Shown: one piece after another, positions 4,066-63,603 of the stretch
Layout of the letters: the number at the start of each line of letters is the position of its first letter
Position numbering within the stretch: position 1 is the stretch's first letter
Program-made: the position numbers and the translations under genes
Assembly: GCA_024137785.1 (NCBI GenBank)
Contig: JAHRHZ010000059.1
Span: 19,658,213-19,722,212 of the forward strand
Source of the DNA: Ginglymostoma cirratum
Lineage: Eukaryota
DNA length: 64,000 nt
Direction: 5' to 3'
The notes under the pieces: generated by a model
Seen by the model: the letters and a program-made list of their open reading frames with translations, nothing else
What the model was told of the DNA's origin: nothing
Database searches by the model: none

Positions 4066-6434
4066 ATAGAATTGTGAATCATTAAATACCAGTTAATTGA
4101 TATCTAGCTGTAGGTCTCACATTATCCTGTTTGACTGAACCAGTTCAACTGGCCCTTCCTATTGGATCCATTACATCTAGTGAAATCAACAGTTCAAATG
4201 CTTTCCAGTGACTGGCACTAGTTGAACTGGACTTCGTTTCCTCATTGTGAACTGTCTGAGCTGGTAGAAGGTTCAACAAGAGTTATGTCCTTTCTTCAAA
4301 GTCTCTACTTCCCACTTCCCTTTCTTGGTTTAATATTCTTAAATCTCAACACTAACAAAGCTGTTGGTAAGCCTGCTATTAGCTCCTTCTTTGATGGACT
4401 GTCCTTTCTTTTTCTCTTATGTCTCTGCAAAGCATCTGAAAATTGCTTTATATGCCAAAGCCACCATATTATTGCAAGTCCTCATTGCTACCGATCTAGA
4501 GCAGGCATGTCACACAGTACCAATAAATTTGTAGAGATAATTGAATAGTTGTGTTAAGACTTTGGAGAAAGATAAGAGGTTTCAACTGGATTTGGAGAAC
4601 TTGGGGCAGAGGGACAAAAATTGATAAATACCTTTTAATATATACATAACTGCACAGTTCTACACCCAGATGCAAATCCGGACTGCAGCTTAAATAAGTG
4701 TTGCTGTTATTCACAAGATGTTAGAGGAAGTATCTGATACAAGTCAATTTCGACTGAAGAGAATTGGATTTTGGGTTTATTCCCTACAAATTTAAGGCCT
4801 CTCTGATAATCAGGTTTATAAGGCTTAAAAAGGGTATGGAATTAAATGCAACGTTATTTATTCTACGTCAAGAAAAGCAATGCAACAAAAATAATGAGAA
4901 CATCTTCACCCCACCTGCACTGAAGGTGGAATTTGCGTCATTGATTGACCAGTCAACCGTAGACTTGGTAGGTATGTGATTGCACATTATTAAGGATGTT
5001 GAATCAGTCTGTGCAAAGTGATGGGGCTCTGTAGAACTAGAGAAACCCATTTTAATTGTAAAGCGAGGGAGCTTGGATATTCTGTTATTTTGTTTTCCTA
5101 AAGGAGGCAGCTTGTAGTGCACGGCTGCCAATTAAGATAGGAGTGGGATTTTACTCTTTACAATCTCTCAGAAAGGTGTTAGATGCATTCTTGAAAAATG
5201 GTGCGATCACACAAAGAGGTAGGAGATTATTCTACCTAACAGCTAATGGCTTTAGGATCTGTTCATTTATGCTAGATCATCTTTCAAAAATTGAAGAAGG
5301 GATCTTTGATAGAGAATTTTTGAATTGGTTATATGGATCTCTTCTTTAACCAGGAGATAGAAAGGACAGGGAAATGAAGGTAAGAGAAACAAGTTAAATG
5401 AGGCAAATGTTTGTTGGCCTGTTGGGGTATTCATTCTAAGTACACAAACCTCTGTGGTCAGAAATGAAGATCTGCGTACTTTCAGAAGTTTCAAAAGACT
5501 TATTAACTGGAACAGAGAGAAACGTAAGAGACCTGTATCCTTTTTTTAATTGTCTGCTGAGGGCATGGTAACCTGATCACTGTGGTGATGTAACAAAGTA
5601 TATGGAACATATTTGTCTGGTGTTTCTATGCAGCATATTTATTGTGAGGAGCAGAGATGTGTAATTCACGTATTCCTGATTATGGACATGATCTCTCTGG
5701 GACCTTGCACCTCCCTGCTGGTTCAGTGGGAATTTTAGAATAAGAAGACACTTGTGATTCAGTAAAGAGGCATGCATTTGAACTCTGTGATTAACAGGAT
5801 ACCCACACACGAGTTCCCGTGTAGATTGCCAGGATCTGCGTATTTGGCATTCTTGGTATCTTAGTGAGACTTACCTCACAATTTTTTTCCTATCTCACCA
5901 TTATTTTGTATTGGGAATGGTATCCAAGTTGGAGTACAACACATTCCCCGCCTAAATGATGTTATTAGAACATTTAACAAAGCATGAACCAAATATCATT
6001 ATGTAATCAGAACTTTGTTTGCTTTGATCTTGAATCAAGTTGAAATTATGTTTAGACTTGGCTCCAGAGCATTTGTATACGATAGTCGCATCATTTAAGT
6101 TACACTGGATTTGTTTTTCTCACAGTGAATGCATTTTTATAAAACGAGACTTTGTTTTAGCTCATGAGCTTAGCATATTAGAAATGGTTATGTTGTGAAT
6201 AACAAGTGTTCTTGAAGTGAATTGCAGGCTTGAAGGATTTTTGAGATGTTTCTGAAGTCATAGACTCTCTAAAATGGGCGAACACCACATTGTTGTCACC
6301 TATAACTCAACACACTACAAAACAGTTCCATCCACTGCCATTCGAGCTAGTGTGGTTAAATTCAAATCTGTTGGATCTTATTTAAGGTTACATACTTGAG
6401 TGCATCAGTTATATTCAGGGGACTGGTCTTTTCC

Positions 6435-6591
6435 GGGCCTAAACCCTTCATCAGAAATCATTTCTGATGAAGGGTTTAGGCCCGAAACGTCAAGTTTTCC
6501 TGCTCCTGTGATGCTGCTTGGCCTGCTGTGTTCATCCAGCCCCATGCTTGTTATCTCGGATTCTCCAGCATCTGCAGTACCTTTTATCTCT
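6435..6591 (+). mobile_element. Penelope-like family A insertion with inverted 5' arm and 14-bp TSD
   Basis: TSD GACTGGTCTTTTCC at 6421-6434 and 6592-6605. Perfect 24-bp inverted repeat 6435-6458 / 6460-6483. Confidence 0.8.
6461..6494 (+). ncRNA. Minimal hammerhead ribozyme motif (intact core), family A
   Basis: TTT-CTGATGA-A-GGGT[TTAG]GCCC-GAAAC-GTC^AAG: conserved CUGANGA and GAAA boxes, stem II, palindromic ACGU stem III, GUC triplet 6489-6491, short stem I UUU/AAG. Confidence 0.7.
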
Positions 6592-7520
6592 GACTGGTCT
6601 TTTCCTTTCCATTTCACAGTGACTTATTTAATTTACTCACAAGTCACAGCTTTATTTTTGCCTGTTTTTCTCCCTTAGTCCCCAGTCACATTGAAATATG
6701 GATCCTCGGCTATAACCGATCTTGCTGGTAACCCATTCAAATAACAACTGATCAGATGTGTACCCAGACCCTTGTTTTAAAACAAAGTCTGTTCTACGAA
6801 AATGCATTCACTGAGAAAACAGCACAAATCCATTGTGACTTAATGATGCAACTATCATATTCAAATGCTCAGTCTAAATGCAATTTCAGCTTTGTTCACG
6901 GAATTATACATTGTTAGCAGGGTCAGCATTTATGGCCCATCCCTAAATCCCCTTGAGGAGATGACATCGAGGAACTTTCTTATAGCTGAGTGATGTGCTA
7001 GACATTTTCAAAGAACAACCAAGAGGCATGCACGTTGACTGGAAGAGTGAAATGGAAGACAGACCAGGTCAGGATGGCAGACTTCCTTCCCCGAAGGATA
7101 TTATGATTTAACACTGCAGCAATTACCTTGCCATTCACTACTGGTACTAGGTATCCACAATGCCAGATTTATTTAGTTAACTGCATTTCAATTCCCAGCT
7201 GCTACTATAAGACTTGAATTTATGTTTCTGAATCATTAGTCCAGGAATATAACTACTATTTACTGTTCCCAGTGATTGGAGTGTTTTTATTTTACCACTG
7301 CAGGTACAAATCAAACTGAGATCCATTCAGTCTTACGTTCCACCTGAGCTCACTGCCTATGAACCAAGATTGCATCAATTACTAACTGAGAGAAATTATT
7401 CAGTGTGATACTCCAGTTCCTGCCCTGGCAGAGACCCACAAGTTCATCAAAGACCAGAGGCTGAACTTTGTAAAAAAAAATATATGTTCAAGGCAATTAA
7501 GTAAAAGGTATACAATAGAC

Positions 7521-10475: not shown

Positions 10476-11432
10476 GGGGCAGCACCGTGGCTCAATGGTT
10501 AGCAGTGCTGCCTCACATAGCCAGGGACCTGAGCTCAATTCCACCTTCAGATGACTGTGCAGAGTTTGCACATTTTCCCTGTGTCTGTGTGGCTTTCCTC
10601 CAGTGCTCCAGTTTCCTCCCACAGCCCAAAGATGTGCAGGTTAGGGTGGATTGGCCATGCTAAATTGCCCATATTAAGGTGTGGAGCTGGATGAACACAG
10701 CAGGCCAAGCAGCATCAGAGGAGCAGGAAGGCTGACGTTTTGGGCCTAGACCCTTCTTCAGAAATGAAGGCTGGTCTTGGTTTGCAAGCTCATTGAGGAG
10801 CAAATATACCCAACGCTTTCCTTGCAGTTTAACACATGCTATCCCCAGTAGACTTCTTGTTATGCGTTGCACTATCAATTGGATTCCTGCTCAAAAGTGA
10901 TAGCCCATTCTTGTGAAAGTCGAATGGACCCAGTGTATTGGCCCTATTGGACGGCTTATGATTGTTCGCAAAATTGACTATAGAATCACTACAGTGTGGA
11001 AGCAGGCCATTCAGCCCATCAAGTCTACACAGACCCTCTAAGGAGCATCCCACCCAGACCCATACCCCATGTAACCCTGCATTTCCCATGGTTAATCCAC
11101 CTAGCCTCTACACCCTGGACAACATGGGCAATATAGTAGGAACTGCAGATTCAGAAATGAAGAAGGGTCTAGGCCCGAAACATCAGCCTTCCTGCTCCTC
11201 TGATGCTGCTTGGCCTGCTGTGTTCATCCAGCTCGATACCTTGTTCTCTCAGATTCTTCAGCATCTGCAGTTCCTACTATATTGCCCATGTTGTCCAGGG
11301 TGTACAGGCTAGGTGGATTAACCATGGGAAATGCAGGGTTACATGGGATATGGGTCTGGGTGGGATGCTCCTTAGAGGGTCTGTGTGGACAAGATGGGCT
11401 GAATGGCCTGCTTCCACACTGTAGTGATCCTA
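10476..11432 (+). mobile_element. HE1-type V-SINE split into 10476-10672 and 11281-11432
   Basis: The halves join seamlessly across the ATTGCCCAT duplication. Confidence 0.8.
10673..11280. mobile_element. Palindromic family A insertion splitting an HE1 SINE and containing an inverted duplication of its own flank
   Basis: TSD ATTGCCCAT at 10664-10672 and 11281-11289. Element arms ~10675-10766 (-) and ~11157-11280 (+). The interior 10768-11150 is the reverse complement of 11263-11536 plus an extra ~110 bp. Confidence 0.8.
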
Positions 11433-18296: not shown

Positions 18297-19168
18297 TATT
18301 ATGGACCAGACCAGATCCCCTCAAACCATTTAAGAATGTAACCTAGACCCTACTTTTTTTCTTATTTTTAAAGGCAAATGTGAAGTGCCTGCTCCAGATG
18401 CAATGCGACTGGTCAAACTACTCAATGTTGGGCAAAACACAGTTTATTTAAACACTGTAGTTAAAATACAATCAAAGAAGGAGGAAGTTAAAATAACTCT
18501 ACTGGAAAATTTAACAGAGTAATAGATACAGTACAAATTACTGACTAAAAAACAAAAGAACTACAGATGCTGTAAATCAGGAACAAAAACAGAAGTTGCT
18601 GGAAAAGTTCAGCAGGTCTGGCAGCATCTGTGAAGAGAAAATCAGAGTTAACGTTTTGGGTCCAGTGACCCTTCCTCAGAACTTTTATCTGAGTGGACCT
18701 GAAACGTTAACTCTGATTTTCCCTTCACAGATGCTGCCAGACCTGCTGGGCTTTTCCAGCAACTTCTGTTTTTGTACCTATTACAAACTAACTATTCCAA
18801 CATAGTAACATCCCATACACACACCCCTTAGTAAAAAGGTTAATTCAGACTCAGACAGTCACATGCGGTTCTCCAATCCAGGAGGGGGAAAAAAATCAAC
18901 AGAAAATTCAGACAGAGTAGCATTCAGGAGATATTAACTGAAGCATCCAACTTTGTTGAGACTCCAAAAGCTTCCGACGCCACTGAGAAGCCAAAACCCG
19001 GAAATCCTGATTGGTGGGTGCTGGCCACACCCATTCAGGCTGCATTAAAAAAAAAACAAGGCCTCCCAAGCTGTTCACAATACTCCAGACTGCTCTGTGC
19101 CTCTATCTCTCAACTTCTCTTCAAAAGAAAAGGACAAAATAACCTCTTAAAGTGACAGCATTGCCACA
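18297..19168 (-). mobile_element. Solo LTR (~630 bp plus nested family B element)
   Basis: TSD TAGT (18293-18296 / 19169-19172); reverse-complement homology to 23164-23795. Confidence 0.7.
18546..18778. mobile_element. Palindromic Penelope-like family B insertion inside a solo LTR
   Basis: Arms ~18581-18664 and ~18694-18778 are reverse complements. Minus strand has AGTT-CTGAGGA-A-GGGTC[ACTG]GACCC-AAAAC-GTT-AACT (GAAA box mutated). Confidence 0.75.
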
Positions 19169-24694: not shown

Positions 24695-24832
24695 GTTTCT
24701 GTGGAAGGGTCACCAGTCCCGAAATGTTAACTCCGATTTGTCCTCACAGATCCTCCCAGACCTGCTGAGCTTTACCAGCAAATTCTGTTTTTGTGTCTGT
24801 TTTACAGCATCTGCAGCTCTTTCGGTTTTGAT
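24695..24832 (+). mobile_element. Family B single arm with decayed hammerhead
   Basis: TTTCTGTGGAAGGGTCACCAGTCCCGAAATGTTAAC followed by CAGACCTGCTGAGCTTTACCAGCA and the tail. Confidence 0.7.
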
Positions 24833-27539: not shown

Positions 27540-27744
27540 AAAAAGACAGAAATTGCTGGAAAAGCTCAGCAGGCCTGGCAGCATCTGTGGACAGAAATCA
27601 GTGTTAATGCTTCAGGTCAAGTGTTCTGAGGTCACTTGACCTGAAACGTTAACTCTGATTGCTGGCCAAAGATGCTGCCAGGCCTGCTGAGCTTTTCCAG
27701 CAATGTCTGTTTTCGTTTCTGATTTACAATTCTTTCAGTTTTAT
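27540..27744. mobile_element. Palindromic family B insertion
   Basis: Inverted arms ~27543-27623 and ~27633-27713. TSD ACTGTTAACTGCCAC (27525-27539) / ACTGTTACTTGCCAC (27745-27759). Confidence 0.75.
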
Positions 27745-28938
27745 ACTGTTACTTGCCACTTTTGTTCTTCTAGGCACTTGATCTTGCAAATTCATAAGGA
27801 GCTGTTGAATGACCGCTGTCGAATCACTGCAGTCTATCCTACAGATTCATGTACGCTGCGGACAGTGTGCCAATACTGGAGTGAGTGGGTGTTTAAGGAA
27901 TTCATTTCGCCACCAATCAAGTCATCCCAAATGCCGCAGATCCTTCTCGAATATTGTCACAGTTGCCTGTTTCCAACCAGGTAGTTTGTATTCAGGAGAT
28001 AATCCACTCCCACTTCAGAACATCTGACCTACCTCCAATCAGCTCTTGTAGCCATGTCTATGTATTGAACTTCTTTGATGTGAAGAAACAAAGTATACTG
28101 AGTCTACATCTGCACAAAAGTTTAGATCCTTACCTTGGCCAATCAGTTTTTGTTAAAAAAAAGAGACGGTCTTAGTTTCTCTCTCCCTTTTCTCTCTTAT
28201 CATCAGTTGCTCTGCCTGCAGCTGAAATTCCTGATTTTGTTTTCCTGTTTTTCGAAAAATAATAAAATGTGAACATTATGTGGTATTTCCTGCTATAGAG
28301 AAAGCAAACTTTACCTTCATTTCCATGCTTTGGAACCATTCCCTCTTTCAGTATTTCTCTCCTCTGTGATCTTATTCCTATGTTGCATAGAAAGGAGAGT
28401 AGGCCATTCAGCCCCTCAAGCCTTTTCCACCATTCACTGAGACCATTGGCCTAATTCCATAAACCTGCCTTTGGCCCTTATCCTTTTATAGCTTTGTTTT
28501 CAGACCAATTTTCACGCCACTCCCACCCTTTCAGTTCCAGAATTCCCAAACCAATGGAAGTTGTTATCTACTCTTCATTTTCTTATTAGTATCTTGAAGA
28601 TATTTTGAAGATGTAGGTATTACTCTTTGTCTGTTTTCATCTTCTATTACATTTCCCAGCATCTCTTCATCCTGGTGTTTTATCTTTTTGTCACTCTCTC
28701 CTTATGCCCTTTATTTTCTCTTCAATTTTCACTCCCTACATCTCTGTTACCCTTTCCTTGTATTGTTCTTCTGTCCAATTCTGCATTTCTTTCTCGCTTG
28801 CTGTCCCATAGCCTCTTGAGCGGCTGATCACTGCATGGTTATTTGCAATTTTGGAACAAAAATAGAACAGGACTGGATAAGAGTTCTGTAACTTGTACAG
28901 GGAATGCCATCAAGTAGGGGATCTACCTAAATACAGAA

Positions 28939-29153
28939 ACAAAATCAGAAGTTGTTGGGAAAACACAGCAGGTCTGGCAGCACTTGCGACAAAAAAATCA
29001 GAGTTAATGTTTCGGGTCCAGTGACCCTTCCTCAGAACTCAGTTCTGAGTTAACTTTGACTTTTTCTTCACAGATGCTGCCAGACCTGCTGAGCTTTTTC
29101 AGGAACTTCTGCCCTTGTTCCTGATTTACAGTATCCGCAGCTCTTTTGGTTTT
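28939..29153. mobile_element. Palindromic family B insertion
   Basis: TSD TACCTAAATACAGAA (28924-28938) / TACCTAACTACAGAA (29154-29168). Inverted arms. Confidence 0.75.
29001..29040 (-). ncRNA. Minimal hammerhead ribozyme motif, family B
   Basis: Minus strand GAGTT-CTGAGGA-A-GGGTC[ACTG]GACCC-GAAAC-ATT^AACTC: 5-bp stem I, 5-bp stem II. ACGT has decayed to ACAT. Confidence 0.65.
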
Positions 29154-29399
29154 TACCTAACTACAGAACTTGCCCTGCTCATCATCGTGCAGCTGAGATT
29201 AGGGTCTGATCAGATGTGGAGTTATGGATGTGAATCCAAGATTACAACTGAATGACAAGGCACATATAATAATGAATTCACCTCATTACAAATCTACATC
29301 ACCAAATTTAATGTATTCGAAATGATGGTGTAGTGAGCTGATCACCAGTGGAAGCTAAACTTAGCCTTGACTGATGGAAAAATAATACCTTCTAAACAA

Positions 29400-33290: not shown

Positions 33291-35155
33291 GGCTCAATGC
33301 GAGCCCAGATGGCAGCAGTGGCAACCGGTGGCAAAAAATGGCAGCAGCGACAGTTGGCCGCTATGCAGTGGCTAACCCTGCCATGCTTGGGGCGGATTTC
33401 AGCCCATCGCAGGGGACACCAAACCATCTTGGGGGACAGCCCAGCTCGGAGCATCTGTAGGCCCATGGCTTAAGAAAGAACTGCGGTGTTTGACAGTTTA
33501 ACGTTCTTCCTTTATCTTGCCACTTTTGTGGTAGTGCCAAACTTTTTAACTCATTTCTTTATTACTCCATTTCTGTAACTAAGATTTGTACCTCAGTACT
33601 TTATACTCGAGACGCCATGTTTCCCATATTGCCACAAGTTCACCTCCAGCACTTGACAAAAGGTGGCTGATCTGGGACATTAATTCCTTTCTGTCTCCAC
33701 AGATGCTACCTGGCCCGCTGAGGTGCTTTGCAGGATGTTAGAGAGATCTACAGCCCAGACAAAGGCCCTTCTGCCCATTGAACCCCCATTAGTCAGTAAC
33801 AACCACTGACCTACTCTAATCCCATTGATCTTTTTCTTTAATTTGTGACACTTTGATTCTGACACTCATCACATCAAGTGGAGAGACACTTCAATTCCCT
33901 ATGATTTTGACAGGCTCTGCCATTGTTCTGTCTCAGTACAGCTTTATTCTGCAGGCTCAGTAGCTCTTTGTTTTTTTTCTCTCTAATGGAGTTAGCAGAA
34001 ATCATTGCCTGAAAGAGATGAAAAAATAATGACAATTAGCTTACTGGAGGGATTAAAAAAAAAGACAGATGTTATGCCTTTGATTTGAAATCACAGCTCA
34101 TTTTGATTAAACTTGGAAACGTCCAACTCAGAGAAAGGGTTGTTGACCTGCAAGTTGTTGGTCAAAACTTGAGCACAATGTCCTCTTGGCCCTGCTGTTA
34201 GGTGAAAGGGCATTGAGAGGTTATTGTACACATCATGCATCATATCCAGTACTATGCTGTGTGTGGTCTTCGGAAACCAAAACCTAACATCTATTCAGTA
34301 ACATCTTGGCCGGGACTATTTGCGAAAGCTCTCTATGCCAGAGGGTGGAAAGAGGCAACATTCATGTACCGTACTCAAGACCTTACAGTTCATCTCACTG
34401 GTGCCAAGTTTCACATCCAAGTTGTCCCAATCCCACAATGCCTGACTGCTAAAGACGAAGATAATGTCAATCTACTTAACATGAAGCATCTGAGCAAAAG
34501 ATATATAAAATTACAGACTTGTTATGTATAAAAGCAGGCCATTCAGGCCATCATGTCTGTACTAGGTCTATTACTAAGTGCCAATCTCCTGCCTTTTCCA
34601 CATACTTAATTCATCATAACCACTACTTAAGTATTAAAGGGCATCCTCTTTAAACACACAGTGTTCACTATATTCTTATAGAGTCATAGACGAGAACAGA
34701 CCCTTCAGTTCAACTCGCACCTGCTGACCAGATGTCCGAAATAAATCTAGTCCCATTTGCCAGCATTTGGCCAATATACCTCTCACTTTAATATCTCACA
34801 GTGAATCTCCGTGGAAAGATCCTGGTAGCAGTCCCTTTCAGTGTATGACCAGTAATGATACACAGATTAGTATAATTGTTACTGAGCCGGATTGCCATTC
34901 CAAAGCAGGGATAGAAAGCTGACTGCATCAGCATTTGACATCAGACGGAACTATGTTGTTCAATGAACGACCAAGTTTCCAAACGGTTTAGTGGGTGTAG
35001 TATTGAGGCAACCGGAACAGAAATTTATCCTGAGTTAATGAGACTGGCAGGGAAACGATTTCCACGTCATTACTCTCAGAATCGAGGAAGTGAAGGGCCG
35101 GTAAGGATTTCTCAATCTGGTTGCTTTTCAATGATTAATATTGAAGCTGCTGCTT

Positions 35156-40329: not shown

Positions 40330-41560
40330 TCACATTTAATATTTTATTAGAAAAACGATGTAGTGCCAAATGATAGCTAATGTATATCTTGTATCTACAA
40401 GGGGGAACAAAACATGTCCTGGGATTTAAAGATCGATCAGCTTATTAGTTGTAGGGAAGACAATTAAATCCTTACTGAAAGAGAGAATCAACCAACATCT
40501 GGAGGTGAGAAATATAATAACAAATAATCAACATTGGTTTCAAAAGGAGAAATATGACTTAACCAGCTTTTTGGTTACCTGAAAGCCCAGTTCAATTCAA
40601 CCCACATGATATAGAGAAATGGCTGTGGGCAGAGAGGATTCTCCTAATTTCCATTAACTTCAGTTTTGCGAGGGCACCTTGACACCACTATCAGTTGCAT
40701 GTTACCTTAATATCAAGGGCAAGCACTCTCATCTCACCTCTTTAACATCATGATAAATTCAGAGAATATGATATCAGAGAATGAATCCCAAACGGATTAT
40801 CAATTGGGTTCAAGCATGACAGAAGACAGTTGAAGTAAAGAGTAAAGTTAAAATGCTGCAGATGTTGGAAACCTGAAGCAAACACAGAGAATTCTGAAGA
40901 AACTCAGCAGGTCTGGCAGCATCTATGGAGAGAGAAATGTTTCAAGTCTGGTGTGACACTTCTTCAGAAAACACAATTTCCAAATTAGTTGTGGATGAAA
41001 AATTGGGATAGATAGTCAAAAATGAGGAGCACTACAACAGAAGTACATTAGTTAATTTGCAGAGCAGCAAATAATTGACAAATTAAACATAACAGAGAAA
41101 TGTGAGGTATTGGACTTTGGTAAGAGGAATAGGGAAGGAAGTCACTTATTACTTGGAAAGTGCAAGTCTAGGTGTGGCACAAGGCATCTTGGAGGCAAAT
41201 ACAACAAAGCTAAAACTGAAAGTGGCACTAAAACTGGCACCATATGTCATAAACAATAAAATAAACCTTGCAGTGGGCTTTATTGACTGAAGGATTGAAT
41301 TGAAATGTAAGCATGTTATATTAAACCTGTTTCAAGACTTGGTTAACCTACATTTAGAGTACTATCTACCGTTTTGTTTGTTATATCATAGGATGGACAT
41401 TGAGGCACTGGAACGGGTACAGAGAAGATCTGCAAGGATAATGCCAGAAATCTGTGCATTACATAGTAGGAAATAATCAAAGCCTGTGTCTCTGCTCTCT
41501 CTGGAAAAAAGAAAGCTGAGGAGTGAACCAGTAGAGATATTTTAAGTTCTATAGAGATTG
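40330..41560 (+). mobile_element. Decayed CR1 LINE pieces
   Basis: AAATGTGAGGTATTGGACTTTGGTAAGAGGAAT, TTGGTTAACCTACATTTAGAGTAC. Confidence 0.5.
40850..40969 (-). mobile_element. Family B-like single arm
   Basis: GAAACTCAGCAGGTCTGGCAGCATCTATGGAGAG; minus strand TTCTGAAGAAGTGTC..GACTTGAAAC. Confidence 0.6.
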
Positions 41561-54139: not shown

Positions 54140-54260
54140 CTCCTGAAAGCTCCCAGACCTGAAACGTTAACTGTTTCTCTCTCCGCAGCAACTGTCTGAC
54201 CTGCTAAGCAGTTTTTGTGTTGTGTATATCTTAGGTTTCCAGCATCTGCAGTTTGGATTT
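54140..54260 (+). mobile_element. Family B-like single arm
   Basis: GACCTGAAACGTTAACTGTTTCTCTCTCC...GACCTGCT...TTTCCAGCATCTGCAG. Confidence 0.55.
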
Positions 54261-54879
54261 TAGACTTTCCTTTCTGTCTCTCTGTTTTCTCCGAGGAGAT
54301 CCCACTCTCTACCCACTCAATGAAGAAGCACTGGCGGCGGGCAAGCTGTCCAGGATATTTAAAACAAAAACTGAGAGCGGGACTAAACAAAGGTTTGACA
54401 AACGTTCTGGGGAGATTGACGGAAATTCGGATTAAGAATAAGGGCCAGTTTCTCCAGCCAGCTTTCTAAGCAAAAAATCAACAGGACAACTAAGAAAGTA
54501 CGGAAGAATAGAGAAATGAGGTATTTAAACTAAAACGGACAAGGGAAGAGGGGGAATCAGAACACACGTATCGTGTCGGTGTCTGGAATGAGATAGATCA
54601 GATAGTCGGGGGTGTGGGGTGGTGGGGGGGGATGGGGGGCGCATTTGGAGGTTAGGGCTGAATTGGGACCTATTGGATCTGTCACTCGGTGCAGAGGTGA
54701 GGTATGAATTAACAGGGCTATAAATAAGACTAATAAACAGCTCTATTAATCCTAATGCATGTTCTCTCTGGGCGCTCCCAGGAGATGTCTAATGCATACA
54801 TGTGTACAGAAATGATAACGAACGTCGTCTGAATTATAAAATGACCGGGTATTCACAACGTCAGAAATAAAACAAAGAT

Positions 54880-55160
54880 CGGAAATGCACACAGCAGAAT
54901 TTGTTGGAGAAACTCAGCAGGCCTCAACAAGGGTCACCGGACTTCAAACGTTAACTCAACTTTCTATCTCCAGAGACGCTGAAGAAGGGTCCCGACTCGA
55001 AACGTCAGTTTTCCTGCTCCTCTGATGCTTCCTGGCCTGCTGTGTTCCTCCAGCTCCGCACTGTGTTGTCTCAGACTCCAGCATCGGCAGTTCTTACTCG
55101 CCCTGCCGGACCTGCTTGAGTTTCTCCAGCAATTTCTGGTTGTGTGTAATCCACAGCATC
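54880..55160 (+). mobile_element. Family B palindromic element with a nested family A variant (54979-55098)
   Basis: B-type arms (GGAGAAACTCAGCAGG / CCTGCTTGAGTTTCTCC) are interrupted by CTGAAGAAGGGTCCCGACTCGAAACGTC (hammerhead core 54979-55006) and the A-type tail. Confidence 0.65.
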
Positions 55161-58558: not shown

Positions 58559-59510
58559 GTAACGCGGGCACAGGAACAAGTGTGTGTTTGTGAGAGAGAG
58601 AGAGAGAGAGTGAGTGCATTCTGCTACAGCCTAACCCAGGACTCAGGAAAGAGACAGAGCACCTGTACGTCTGCTGTCCTTCCAGACAACCCCCACCACT
58701 CCTCTCAACTGTCTGATGTGTCCCACTCCAGACAGATAAAGCAGCTCAGACAAACATAAACAAGGCGGCTCTCTCTCACACACACACGTGTGTGTGCATT
58801 TTTTTTTGGTCTCCCTTGCTTTATTTAATTCCTTAGTTTTCCTCCTAAGAAAATTATGTCATTCCACTTCTTGGTTGCTGACTCATTCAGAATTAAAGTT
58901 AGATTTTTTTTTAACTAGTCTGCTTCTATGTTTTTGTTTCACTCTTTACACACTGGAAGGAAAATCTTTTTTGTTTCAAATTTTACATCTTTCCACTCCT
59001 TAACCTTATGTCATTATATTGCTCTCCCTATTTTTGCCCCCTTAAGTCTCTGATCTGTGTGTGTTTGTGTGTGTGTGTGTTTTACTATTTGTGATCCCGT
59101 AATAAACCCCGTTTCTCTCTCTTCCCCCCCGTCTCAGAGACACGATGACCGCCGGTAGACGTTCTCTGATGGCGCTCTTGCTCTGTCAGGTTTTATTCGG
59201 AGGCTCGGCCGGACTCATCCCCGAGGTGGGCCGCAAGAGATTCGCCGAGCAGTACGCGAACTCGGCTCCCCCGCAGACTGAGGACCTGCTGCAGGAGTTC
59301 GAACTGCGGTTCCTCAACATGTTCGGCCTCCGGCGCCGCCCTCACCCCGCCAGGAACGCAGTCATCCCTCAGTACATGGTGGACCTGTACCGGCTGCACT
59401 CGGGCGAGGAAACCGAGCGGGGACAGGCGACTGACACCTGGGTGCTGTCCCAGTTCCCCGAGAGGTCGGCCAGTCACGCCAATACCGTCAGGAGTTTCCA
59501 CCATGAAGGT
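57950..59510. promoter_or_regulatory. CpG-island-like region over BMP2 exon 1 and the first coding exon
   Basis: CG dinucleotides are visibly frequent (57950-58570, 59140-59510) compared with the CpG-depleted upstream desert. Confidence 0.65.
59145..59508 (+). CDS. BMP2: BMP2 coding exon 1 (signal peptide and N-terminal prodomain)
   Basis: MTAGRRSLMALLLCQVLFGGSAGLIPEVGRKRFA...EFELRFLNMFGLRRRP...YMVDLYRLHSG...ANTVRSFHHE matches the BMP2 N-terminus. Polypyrimidine tract and AG at 59136-59137, 7 nt before the ATG. Phase-1 donor G|GTAAGG at 59508/59509. Confidence 0.96.
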
Positions 59511-59747
59511 AAGGGGGAGGAAAGGTGAGGCGACTCAGGTAGCCTCAGTGACACCTCACACACACATACACCAACAAAAAAAAGCCCCAAGCTCTCTCAG
59601 TCTGGGGGATAAGATCAAAACCTGTCACACAAATCATCCCTAGGCGACAACGTAGCCACATACAACACACAGGTAAACTTCAGCTCTATAGGTGCACAGC
59701 AGACAACTCCATGCACGCTCCTGTCCATAGATCTCGGCACGGATTCT

Positions 59748-60205
59748 GTTTATCCTTCACTGTTTTGTACATATAGTGTCAAGATTCTTGATCCTTCACC
59801 ATTATATGTATAGAGACAGGACTCTACCCTTCTCTGTGTTATATATATTTAGGATCAAGAGTCTTTATCATTCTGTATTCCATATATATAGAGTCAGGAG
59901 TCTTTATCCTTCTGTTTTATACATAGAGAGTCAGGACTCTTTGTTCTTCACTAATTTATATATATATTTAGGGTCAGGAATCTTTATCCTTCAGTATTAT
60001 ATGTATATATACATGTAAGGTCAGGAGTCTGTTTAGTCTTCCCTATTGTATATAGGGTCAGGGGTCTTTGTCCTTCTCTGTCATATGTATAGGATTAAGA
60101 GTCTTTATCCTTCACTATTTTCTATATATTTAGGGTCAAGAGTCTTTATCCTTCAGTATTTAATACGTACTTATAGGGTCAGGAGTATGTTTATCTTTCA
60201 CTATC
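59748..60205. repeat. Intronic minisatellite, ~30-38 bp unit (GGTCAGGAGTCTTTATCCTTC + TA-rich spacer), about 13 copies
   Basis: Seen directly in BMP2 intron 2. Confidence 0.9.
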
Positions 60206-60289
60206 TAGACAGCCTACCTATTCTTGGGGGGTGCCTGCTTGAAATCAAGATTGCACACTTGTACTATCCATCTCACCGATACTCTTTTG

Positions 60290-60382
60290 AAACAAAAAAC
60301 AGTGTTGGAGAAACTCAGCAGGTCTGGCAGTAACTGTGGACAGAGAAAGCAGGGTTGTTGTTCCGAGACCAGTGACTCTTCT
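60290..60382 (-). mobile_element. Family B-like fragment in BMP2 intron 2
   Basis: GGAGAAACTCAGCAGGTCTGGCAG...GTGGACAGAGAAA...CCAGTGACTCTTC. Confidence 0.55.
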
Positions 60383-62758
60383 TGCGTTCCCTGTGACTTG
60401 GTGACTGTGCTCTCACAGCTCGTTGAGCTTTAAGCGGGTACAAACTCCCTCATTCTCTCTCTCTGTCTTCCCACTGTTAATGTTAGACGTGTCTGCGGTA
60501 GGGTTTATTGTTTTGGGGTCGTGTGCCTCAGAAATGGAGGGGAGAAAAAACACCGTCTTTGCCAACTCAAATACATCGCGTGTTTTACAGCAGAATGGGA
60601 TACTTGGTAAATGATTGGCTTAATTTTGTTTTTGACGCGTACATTCCAGTCGATTAACCGTGCAATGTAAATGACCATAAATATTTGTCCCGAGGAGCTC
60701 CCGAGCCTTATCTTATCAGGGTTTCACTTCTTGTTTGCTGACAGACTTTTTACCTTGATTTTGCCGGAACCCTTCGTTTCAGGAGGAATGTCACATCTAT
60801 TTAGCAGAGATCACACAAACACACACATAGGTACCACGAATTTGATACTTTAAAATTCCCTCCCACCTACACGCACGCCGGAGAACGAATCCTTTGGTCG
60901 TTTCATGCAGATCTCTGAATTATTGATATTGAGTCCCTGCAGAATTTTAGCAATGCTGTAATTGCTATGAAGACCATATGGGGCGGGGTTGGCGTGTGTG
61001 TGGTTTTTTTTATGGGGGGCTGATGTTATCTATACACGTTTCCTCCACGAGGGTGGCGGGAGATGAGATCCTTAGCTAAGTGGATTAAATTTGATCCCCA
61101 AGTACTTTCATTCGGCTGTAGTGGGACCCAGATCTCGCGCCTGTTGGAGTGGTAACTCTCATCCATCTCGACGCGTACATCCCTGAATTCGGGTTATACG
61201 TGTCTTAAAAGTTTGCAAGGCTGTTACACATCAAATAGGATTCACACGCATGACTTTCTGCACGAGGATACGGAATCAGTATCTCTCCCCACCCCGCTAA
61301 AGAAAAACGACAGCCAGTCTTATTAAAGCACCGTGTTCAGAGAGGGAATTCTAATGCTGCGTCTGATGCCAATCTTCTATCTCTCGCTGTTTCGGTATCT
61401 ACGAGATCCTAAGGCCCGTAACGCTCCATGCAGACTCAGGAGCTGTTTTCCTTGTCTCATACCAAGTTTATTTAAAGTAACCCGGTTAAACCCTCGCACA
61501 CACACGACAGACACATACGCACACAAACTGCACACGCACACTGGCACTTCAATTTTATTTCAAACCTATTCAGATTCAGTTACAAACGCAGTTCATTGAC
61601 CCCACCCACCACATCCCAGCTGAAAACAAGCGTGAAACAGTGACCCTGTAAATTAAGCATGGGGTGGATAATCCTAGAACAAGGGCAAGTCCTGAAAAAG
61701 TTAGCGCTGTGTGTTCCCGGCTGTGTTAATACCCATGCAGCACACTTGAACAAATGCACAGATGGGCACATTGGCAGTGAGTTAAGCAATGCAGCGTGTT
61801 TAGAATGTGAATGGATCTATTTAAAATGTTGCTGCAGGGGCTAAACCATTGAAAGGTAATTACAGAATACGGTGCAATCTCTTGTATGAGCCAGCGAGTT
61901 TACAAGTGGCACCATGCTTTGGTCTAGATCAGTATTGTGCTGGTATTAGTCAGGAGAGTTGCACATGATTTAGTCAGAATGCATTGCCCACCTTCCCACC
62001 CAACCCCTTATAATTCTTTGCACCTTTGTGGCAAGTCAGTCTTGGGTTGTAAAGTATTAAATGCACCCTCCAAACAATTCAGCAAAGCTGAGTGAATGAA
62101 CACTGTTCATTTTTTGCAGGTTTTACAGAGGAATTCTTGGCTACTCAAATATCTCAGGTTATATTCCCCACACAGACCCATTTCTTGGAATGTGGTCATG
62201 TTCTGTCTGTGGTGAATGACACTGATGCAAAAGTAAGGAAATCAGTTAGATTACCAAGCATGAGACCAGTGGGGGCTCCCTGGTTATGTTTGCTATTCCC
62301 AATTGCTGAGGGTTAAAACCAAAAGTAAACTGATCATCTTAAATATCTTTTGTTTCCAATGCAAACCTGCCCTCAAACAATCACATGCAAATATCATTTC
62401 AAAGTCTACAGTGTGATGAAGTAAGGAAGTAGATTGTATTGTGTTTTGAACATAATCAGCTTAGTCAGGTTATTTACTTACAATCATTTCTCATATTAAA
62501 CGGTTCAGATATACCACAGTTTTAATGTATTATCAGTTATGACAGATTACTCGGGAGAAAATCATCTTTTATTGAAAGCGTCCAATGATGAGATTAGTAT
62601 TTAACATTTATGTTGATATTGTGGTTAATACATTTTGTAATCATTAACTCAAACATTGAGTAGTTGTGATTTATGTGTTACCATATGGTATCAGATTAGC
62701 CTCACCAGTGAGCTTTGCAATGTGGCTAGTGGTGATTCTGATGTCTTTCTCATTTTAG

Positions 62759-63603
62759 AACTACTGGAGAATTTGCCTGGAGCCAGGGGAGAGGTAGTCC
62801 GTCGTTTTTTCTTCAATTTAAACTCTATACCGAGGGAGGAGCTCATCACCTCGGCAGAACTGAGGATCTACCGCCAGCGGGAACAAGAAGCCTGCGCAAA
62901 CTCCAGCAGCGGTTACCATCGCATCAATGTTTATGAGATTCTCAAAGCAACGGGGTCCTCGTCCAGTGATCCCATTACCCGGTTGCTGGACACAAAGGTG
63001 GTGCATCACAATGTGAGCAAATGGGAGAGCTTTGATGTCAGCCCTTCTGTTATGAGATGGACTGCGCAGGGCCAGCCCAACCATGGGTTTATGGTGGAAG
63101 TCATTCACTTGGACAAAGAGTGCAGACATTCAAAGCGACATGTCAGGATCAGTCGGTCTTTGCATCAAGATGAAGAAAGCTGGCCTCAGATGAGGCCTTT
63201 ATTGGTGACGTTTAGCCACAATGGTAAAGGACACACTCTTGAGAAAAGAGTGAGGCGTCAGGTCAAACACAAGCCGAAGAAGAGGTCCAAGTCGAGCTGC
63301 AAGAGGCATCCCTTATACGTAGATTTCAGTGACGTGGGGTGGAATGACTGGATAGTGGCACCTCCAGGATATCATGCCTTTTACTGCCAAGGAGAGTGCC
63401 CTTTTCCACTAGCAGATCACTTAAACTCAACAAACCATGCCATTGTGCAGACATTGGTGAACTCAGTTAATGCAAACATTCCCAGGGCATGCTGTGTCCC
63501 CACGGACCTCAGTCCCATTTCAATGCTTTATCTTGATGAGTACGACAAAGTTGTATTAAAGAACTACCAAGATATGGTTGTGGAGGGTTGTGGATGTCGT
63601 TAA
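62759..63603 (+). CDS. BMP2: BMP2 coding exon 2 (rest of prodomain and TGF-beta cystine-knot mature ligand)
   Basis: Acceptor tctttctcattttAG at 62757-62758 is phase-compatible (G+AA = Glu). S2 site RISR 63145-63156, furin site RVRR 63247-63258. The mature peptide [31 protein letters not shown]...[11 protein letters not shown] is 114 aa, the BMP2 length. Total CDS 1209 nt = 402 aa plus stop. Confidence 0.97.

Follow-up and report, generated by a model that had tools for sequence, protein, structure and literature searches.

Ends of a Penelope-like retrotransposon family in Ginglymostoma cirratum carry a predicted minimal type I hammerhead whose stems were probably kept by selection in the source elements

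A palindromic insert and its relatives in the window

The stretch of DNA analysed here, referred to throughout as the window, comprises 64,000 nucleotides of the Ginglymostoma cirratum assembly GCA_024137785.1 (contig JAHRHZ010000059.1, positions 19,658,213 to 19,722,212 of the forward strand). It contains a palindromic insert at 28931-29153 with TACCTAA on either side and, about 30 kb downstream, a TGF-beta family gene with two coding exons on the plus strand (59106-59528 and 62641-63603; Pfam TGFb_propeptide and TGF_beta). This gene (59106-63603) we take to be BMP2-like. The insert is made up of the following parts, the flanking repeat being called from the sequence:

28924 to 28930, unstranded: TACCTAA, left copy of a 7-bp repeat resembling a target-site duplication
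28931 to 29039, minus: inverted arm, a tailless B-family Penelope end that begins at the A taken as the RNA start (29039) and stops at the first 3' end point
29036 to 29039, minus: AGTT, the 5' arm of stem I, which in long copies overlaps the Initiator-like TCAGTT
29029 to 29035, minus: hammerhead core CTGAGGA (C3 to A9), with an extra A at 29028
29014 to 29027, minus: stem II GGGTC/GACCC with loop ACTG
29006 to 29013, minus: GAAA-C-A-T-T (ACGT in the source), predicted cut between 29006 and 29005
29002 to 29005, minus: stem I 3' arm, AACT
29040 to 29153, plus: direct arm, consisting of CAGTTCTGAG, a gap of 23 missing ribozyme nucleotides, the conserved block and a tail (about 29120-29154)
29154 to 29160, unstranded: TACCTAA, right copy of the 7-bp repeat

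An earlier note on this DNA had described a second family of elements, B, differing in primary sequence from a family A and keeping the same ribozyme core. The minus strand does carry a hammerhead-like core (29035-29001, CTGAGGA A GGGTC ACTG GACCC GAAAC ATT AACTC), but the string quoted for the family has no exact match in the window; with up to three mismatches it matches twice (18645-18679 and 29001-29035, one mismatch each), and not at all in 100 shuffles. Where the quoted string has GAAAC-GTT, the copy at 28939 reads GAAAC-ATT, and in the copy at 18546 GAAAC has become AAAAC. The copy at 28939 has lost the dimer palindrome in the position of helix III (ACGT to ACAT) through a CpG-type change. 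The sequence GAGTT, proposed as a stem I arm, occurs at one of the eight sites listed for the family (28939), and its G is base 29040: C29040, which lies in the middle of the junction CTCAGAACT-C-AGTTCTGAG, gives the G when read on the opposite strand.

The eight sites were assigned to families by eye, B being called from downstream sequence. Four of them (18546, 24695, 27540 and 28939) belong to B, and each of these four copies carries a lesion. The other four do not: those near 40850 and 60290 look like decayed relatives of a GAGTC/GACTC type, and those near 54140 and 54880 are without the CTGAnGA half. The relatives in the window, with two family A copies for comparison, are:

1663 to 2010, minus: family A copy that includes terminal-repeat DNA upstream, core start 1792
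6431 to 6593, plus: palindromic family A copy, core start 6464
18546 to 18779, minus: palindromic B copy, core 18679-18645, G12 changed to A
24695 to 24829, plus: single-arm B copy with a broken core, CTGTGGA
27540 to 27728, plus: palindromic B copy with a deletion within the core
40850 to 40970, minus: older, decayed relative of GAGTC/GACTC type with a 6-nt loop, assigned by eye
54150 to 54262, plus: older relative, 3' half only
54880 to 55160, plus: older B-like palindrome without a core, split by the insertion at 54979
54979 to 55097, plus: family C (A-like) copy, whose ACTC is a copy-level change from ACCC
60289 to 60385, minus: decayed GAGTC-type relative, between the two exons of the TGF-beta family gene

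At 54880-55160 the family C copy is thus nested in the older palindrome, with a short flanking duplication. One more decayed relative of the conserved block, absent from the earlier list, lies at 33640-33760 (plus strand), and at 11080-11330 an A-like copy at 11158 lies in the middle of a longer inverted repeat built from a different short repeat. A degenerate 39-bp tandem array occupies 59833-60140, in the intron of the TGF-beta family gene.

Both strands of the copy at 28931-29153 fold into one long hairpin (z -8.7 and -11.6), which engages both arms of stem I. Its unique flanks received zero reads in two RNA runs, and in the deeper of these 98% of the reads mapped to the element run on into other sequence. 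We saw no sign linking this copy to the TGF-beta family gene. The genomic copies of family B are likely to be inert.

Family B is the end of a Penelope-like retrotransposon

The 4.36-Gb genome holds 8,084 family B cores (counted allowing for CpG changes, otherwise exact), together with 58,668 cores of family A and 1,237 of family C. Family B is shown by its long copies to be the terminal-repeat end of a Penelope-like retrotransposon. The B end in copy L044 comes after the end of an open reading frame (ORF), and long copies found with this end run back through GIY-YIG-like and reverse transcriptase (RT)-like coding DNA with a YIDD motif. Pfam matched pieces of long copies to RVT_1 at E 9.5e-4 and to GIY-YIG at E 4.1e-3, neither of which reaches the curated cut-off; another piece, the third, matched nothing. 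The order of RT followed by a C-terminal GIY-YIG in one ORF is seen in the decayed copies L093, L095 and L069. A near full-length copy, L121, reads as inverted arm, ribozyme, tail, interrupted ORF, terminal repeat, ribozyme and tail, and is the one copy in which a ribozyme-bearing terminal repeat (pLTR) was found at both ends. The likely ATG of B lies about 175 nt past the core, beyond the tail. Family A ends come after the end of an ORF of their own, different from that of B. The label Poseidon, if applied to B, would be by resemblance only.

Most B copies are short and often palindromic, as would be expected of an independent non-autonomous element (SINE, MITE or retrozyme) that multiplies through a circular-RNA cycle driven by its ribozyme. 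This is largely refuted, and we regard it as very improbable indeed: the terminal repeat is present in 24 of 87 copies, the longest of which reach into the ORF, junctions vary from copy to copy, and a tandem array of the unit is absent from the window. The 87 copies, taken from the first 100 among the B-core matches listed, were chosen by the core alone.

Penelope coding DNA itself has received short B ends in two copies, L121 (reverse strand, about 3127, within the family's own ORF) and L174, and A and C ends lie inside other Penelope copies (L063, L222); such placements may reflect a target preference. In L121 and L122 a pyrimidine run ending in AG stands just before the likely ATG, and the match of L122 to L121 starts there, possibly marking the splice acceptor of a 5' UTR intron in this one copy pair. 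The idea that AACTGAGTT comes after a splice acceptor gave no matches and was rejected.

A predicted minimal type I hammerhead with a short stem I

By its sequence, the motif fits the minimal type I hammerhead of Cervera and De la Pena (PMC4209133). The CUGAnGA and GAAA core is present with an NUH triplet (GUU in the source), an extra base follows A9, and the G10.1-C11.1 pair is G-C in 28 and G.U in one of 29 aligned copies. In place of helix III all seven family representatives have the palindrome ACGU (ACAU in the copy at 28939). An Rfam scan of the window returned no hammerhead match at the gathering score. A 42-nt B fragment takes the two-stem fold at minimum energy; among the seven representatives the hammerhead fold is the minimum-energy one in B and G only, and not in A, C, D or F. 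The energy model places the double-hammerhead dimer 6-29 kcal/mol above the best co-fold in all seven families.

Stem I of B is short, comprising four base pairs (AGUU/AACU) followed by a C.C mismatch. The earlier reading of the source stem as GAGTT/AACTC does not hold, as C precedes AGTT in 46 of 47 long copies across all loci, and G in none. All 24 promoter-bearing copies of the 87-copy sample have C at this position, 5 nt before the core. Among 233 B arms 14 read GAGTT and 92 CAGTT, a count that leaves out 30 loci (L031-L060) from a GAGTT-biased pattern, a 770-match set selected for upstream letters. The fifth pair of stem I is unpaired in 23 of the 29 aligned copies. The G of GAGTT was also considered as a copied cap, a reading that the counts do not support: G is no commoner than A before AGTT (7 and 7 of 44 short copies).

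Stem I varies in strength between families, with strong variants in B, D and G and weak ones in A and C. It is broken in C by a U.C mismatch, and 12 of 35 A copies have an A.C end (AAGC). The youngest and most numerous families (A and C) have the weakest stem I. The 3' arm of A's stem I looks like that of C with one inserted A that restores pairing.

Covariation between families

The families were reported in the earlier note to differ in their stems while keeping an invariant core, which was taken to argue for selection on the RNA structure in the source elements. That conclusion is probably correct. Two of the three arguments offered for it do not stand: the fifth pair of stem I is an artefact of the inverted junction, and ACTC reflects decay of a single copy. 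The stems given for family A (TTT/AAG and GGGT/GCCC) are correct. The GGGT/ACTC at 54979, however, does not represent a source variant: among the genomic matches listed, ACCC stands in 97 of 100 and ACTC in 3 of 100. The paired changes that had been cited are mostly copy-level accidents.

Covariation between A and B is thin. The two families differ at stem I pair 3 (G-C to U.G), at stem II pair 4 (U-A to U.G) and in the loop, and the stem I comparison makes the pair 3 change look like the product of a 1-nt register shift, the 3' arm of A having gained a base compared with that of family C. Real support for selection on the fold comes instead from families D, F and G, which the earlier reading had not separated, and clear two-sided changes were found only with families other than A and B (GAGTC/GACTC, AGCT/AGCT and AGTC/GACT). 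To find these families, one side of a pair was specified in the search and the other read off. With GAGTC fixed there were 992 matches, of which the first 100 listed were counted by hand. Among those with loops of 5-6 nt, 31 of 32 carry the compensating GACTC, a change of stem II pair 2 from G-C to A-U, as against 1 of 54 B-type matches; the other 53 B-type matches with GAGTC keep GACCC, which is uncompensated decay. The remaining 14 are mixed, with GACTC in eight and GACCC in six. With the 3' arm GAC fixed (561 matches), six of eight family G copies combine a GACT 3' arm with C before the core, while the 11 copies of family F divide at that base into 5 with C and 6 with T; B point mutants stay uncompensated. 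Family D, the one found with GAGTC fixed, also has stem I AGCT/AGCT, a feature that the search had not selected for.

In an alignment of 29 copies balanced by family, 93.1% of cells pair, compared with 85.9% after shuffling (0 of 500 shuffles reached this value) and 12-50% when the arms are slid, these cell counts being inflated by relatedness. The four pairs with a two-sided change in the same alignment are not above shuffles (259 of 500), and RNAalifold recovered stem II only, and not stem I. A rough tree of the downstream block sets A, C, F and H apart from G, B and D with unsettled bootstrap support, and this split implies about three to four independent two-sided events.

So few events on a poorly resolved tree, a two-sided pair count no higher than in shuffles and the break of stem I in C speak for unselected pairing, with the covariation left over from common ancestry and some random substitutions in a short region that evolves slowly. 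B and D, however, keep eight of eight pairs with two two-sided changes, against 39% divergence in the neighbouring 38-nt block, and one-sided mutants occur only as scattered B copies. A crude neutral simulation of B versus D gave about 0.002-0.003, which is an underestimate because one of the B/D changes was searched for. We consider unselected pairing improbable, and conclude that selection probably maintained stems I and II in the active source elements.

Copy ends and a proposed mechanism

The 5' ends of B copies are bimodal. In the 87-copy sample, 63 copies stop within 7 nt of the core and the other 24 pass through a TATA-like box; in a sample anchored downstream (90 of the first 100 among the matches listed, 31 of which have no readable 5' core), 52 of the 59 copies whose core could be read stop no more than 7 nt from it. 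Ends upstream of the core were measured without gaps, as gapped extension over-extended many short copies by chance. The first base of short copies lies 0-7 nt ahead of the core, where there is a TATA/Initiator-like start, and 23 copies of the 90 start downstream of C3. Intermediate ends occur in one or two copies (L323 at about -22, L292 at about -11). In long copies a TATA-like box lies about 27 nt before an Initiator-like TCAGTT, and a similar spacing is found in families A, C, D, F and G. The 3' ends gather at two points some 38 nt from each other, with 33 and 47 of the 90 copies. An optional tail of 30-40 bp and an adjoining inverted, 5'-truncated copy are both present in the family, the inverted arm being flagged in 35 of 90.

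We infer from the genomic ends alone that the RNA would start at stem I. RNA reads on a long B and A pair gave no start or end site; reads of the polyA run came about equally from both strands and, across two RNA runs, mostly from other copies. The inserted templates were mostly uncut RNA, since the predicted cut site is the start of only 1 of 90 copies and the palindrome 3 nt before it the start of three.

These observations are consistent with a mechanism in which the promoter in the terminal repeat, with its TATA-like box and Initiator-like TCAGTT, would start RNA at the 5' arm of stem I, and the element's protein would begin reverse transcription internally, at a point either about 110 or about 145 nt downstream. 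Extension as far as the RNA 5' end would give the very common short copy, and a start in a downstream repeat would give the long copies reaching the ORF. Two cDNAs joined head to head would yield palindromes such as that at 28931-29153. Cutting by the ribozyme would require dimerisation through ACGU or assistance from the protein, as reported for the class, and copies would decay neutrally after insertion.

The overlap of the stem I 5' arm with a YCA-NYY element in all families examined allows another role for the fold, which might be kept for protein binding or as a promoter or packaging signal, with the 5' arm constrained as an Initiator and catalysis lapsed in most families. The weak stem I of A, the youngest and most numerous family, and the rarity of starts at the cut site are in keeping with this, as is the report by Frangieh et al. 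(2024, PMC11167929) that ribozyme mutants of the anole element had no effect on insertion in vitro. An Initiator leaves the matching changes in the 3' arm and in stem II unexplained, however, and the catalytic positions are fixed while N7 and N17 vary and the neighbouring block of B or D diverges by 24-47% from that of the other families; the anole ribozyme also cleaves when its own protein is present (same source). We consider such a non-catalytic role less likely than not.

A more speculative and rather unlikely reading is that the ribozyme occupies the first bases of the RNA, with stem I doubling as Initiator, so that cutting would remove the cap and act as a dimer-triggered brake; the prolific young families A and C would then have spread after stem I weakened, and a 1-nt insertion would later have partly restored it in A. 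In the literature covered, which includes few subscription journals, we found no paper placing a TATA/Initiator start at stem I of a Penelope-like element (PLE) hammerhead, and likewise none on sharks stating such a start.

As a whole, the preferred reading takes family B to be a Penelope-like end with a predicted minimal type I hammerhead, stems I and II having been selected in active sources, the genomic copies being inert, and RNA start and reverse transcription following the mechanism proposed above. We give it a probability of roughly 0.85.

Relation to known systems and significance

The class of PLE hammerheads, their predicted dimer mode and covariation within a genome were published in 2014 (Cervera and De la Pena, PMC4209133). 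The minimal hammerheads in the pLTRs of metazoan PLEs share with B the type I layout with a stem I of 4-5 bp, the extra base between 9 and 10.1, the G10.1-C11.1 pair, the palindromic 15.2-16.2 and the absence of loop 3, as well as the occurrence of several families per genome with compensatory changes and of mostly single, truncated copies. Stem II is 4-5 bp here versus 7-8 bp in Schistosoma, and the part of that paper covered here names no sharks and maps no 5' ends of copies.

Poseidon of Anolis carolinensis (PAc; PMC11167929) resembles B in having the ribozyme at the junction of repeat and ORF, two 3' end points with the tail between them (shown in PAc to be two internal RT start sites) and an uncut RNA template (in vitro in PAc), RNA ends at the cut site not being seen. 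The ORF of PAc starts within stem II, whereas that of B probably starts about 175 nt after the core. PLE insertions described by Craig et al. (2021, PMC8557442) share with B the 5' truncation, the adjoining inverted 5'-truncated copy and a 30-40 bp tail at one end; the new clades reported in that study mostly lack canonical hammerheads, unlike B. Non-LTR retrozymes (Li et al., bioRxiv 10.64898/2026.07.22.740005), reported also from one cartilaginous fish, are likewise hammerhead-bearing, non-coding derivatives of PLE repeats. They form tandem arrays, whereas B copies are single or inverted pieces: no tandem hammerhead units were found in the window, and the sampled copies were single or inverted.

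The analysis also illustrates that, in a reading of one window, inverted junctions and the decay of copies can mimic covariation. Family B adds a cartilaginous-fish-type example to a described class, its genomic 5' ends hint at a start site on stem I, and the natural series of stem variants could be used to test what Penelope hammerheads do.
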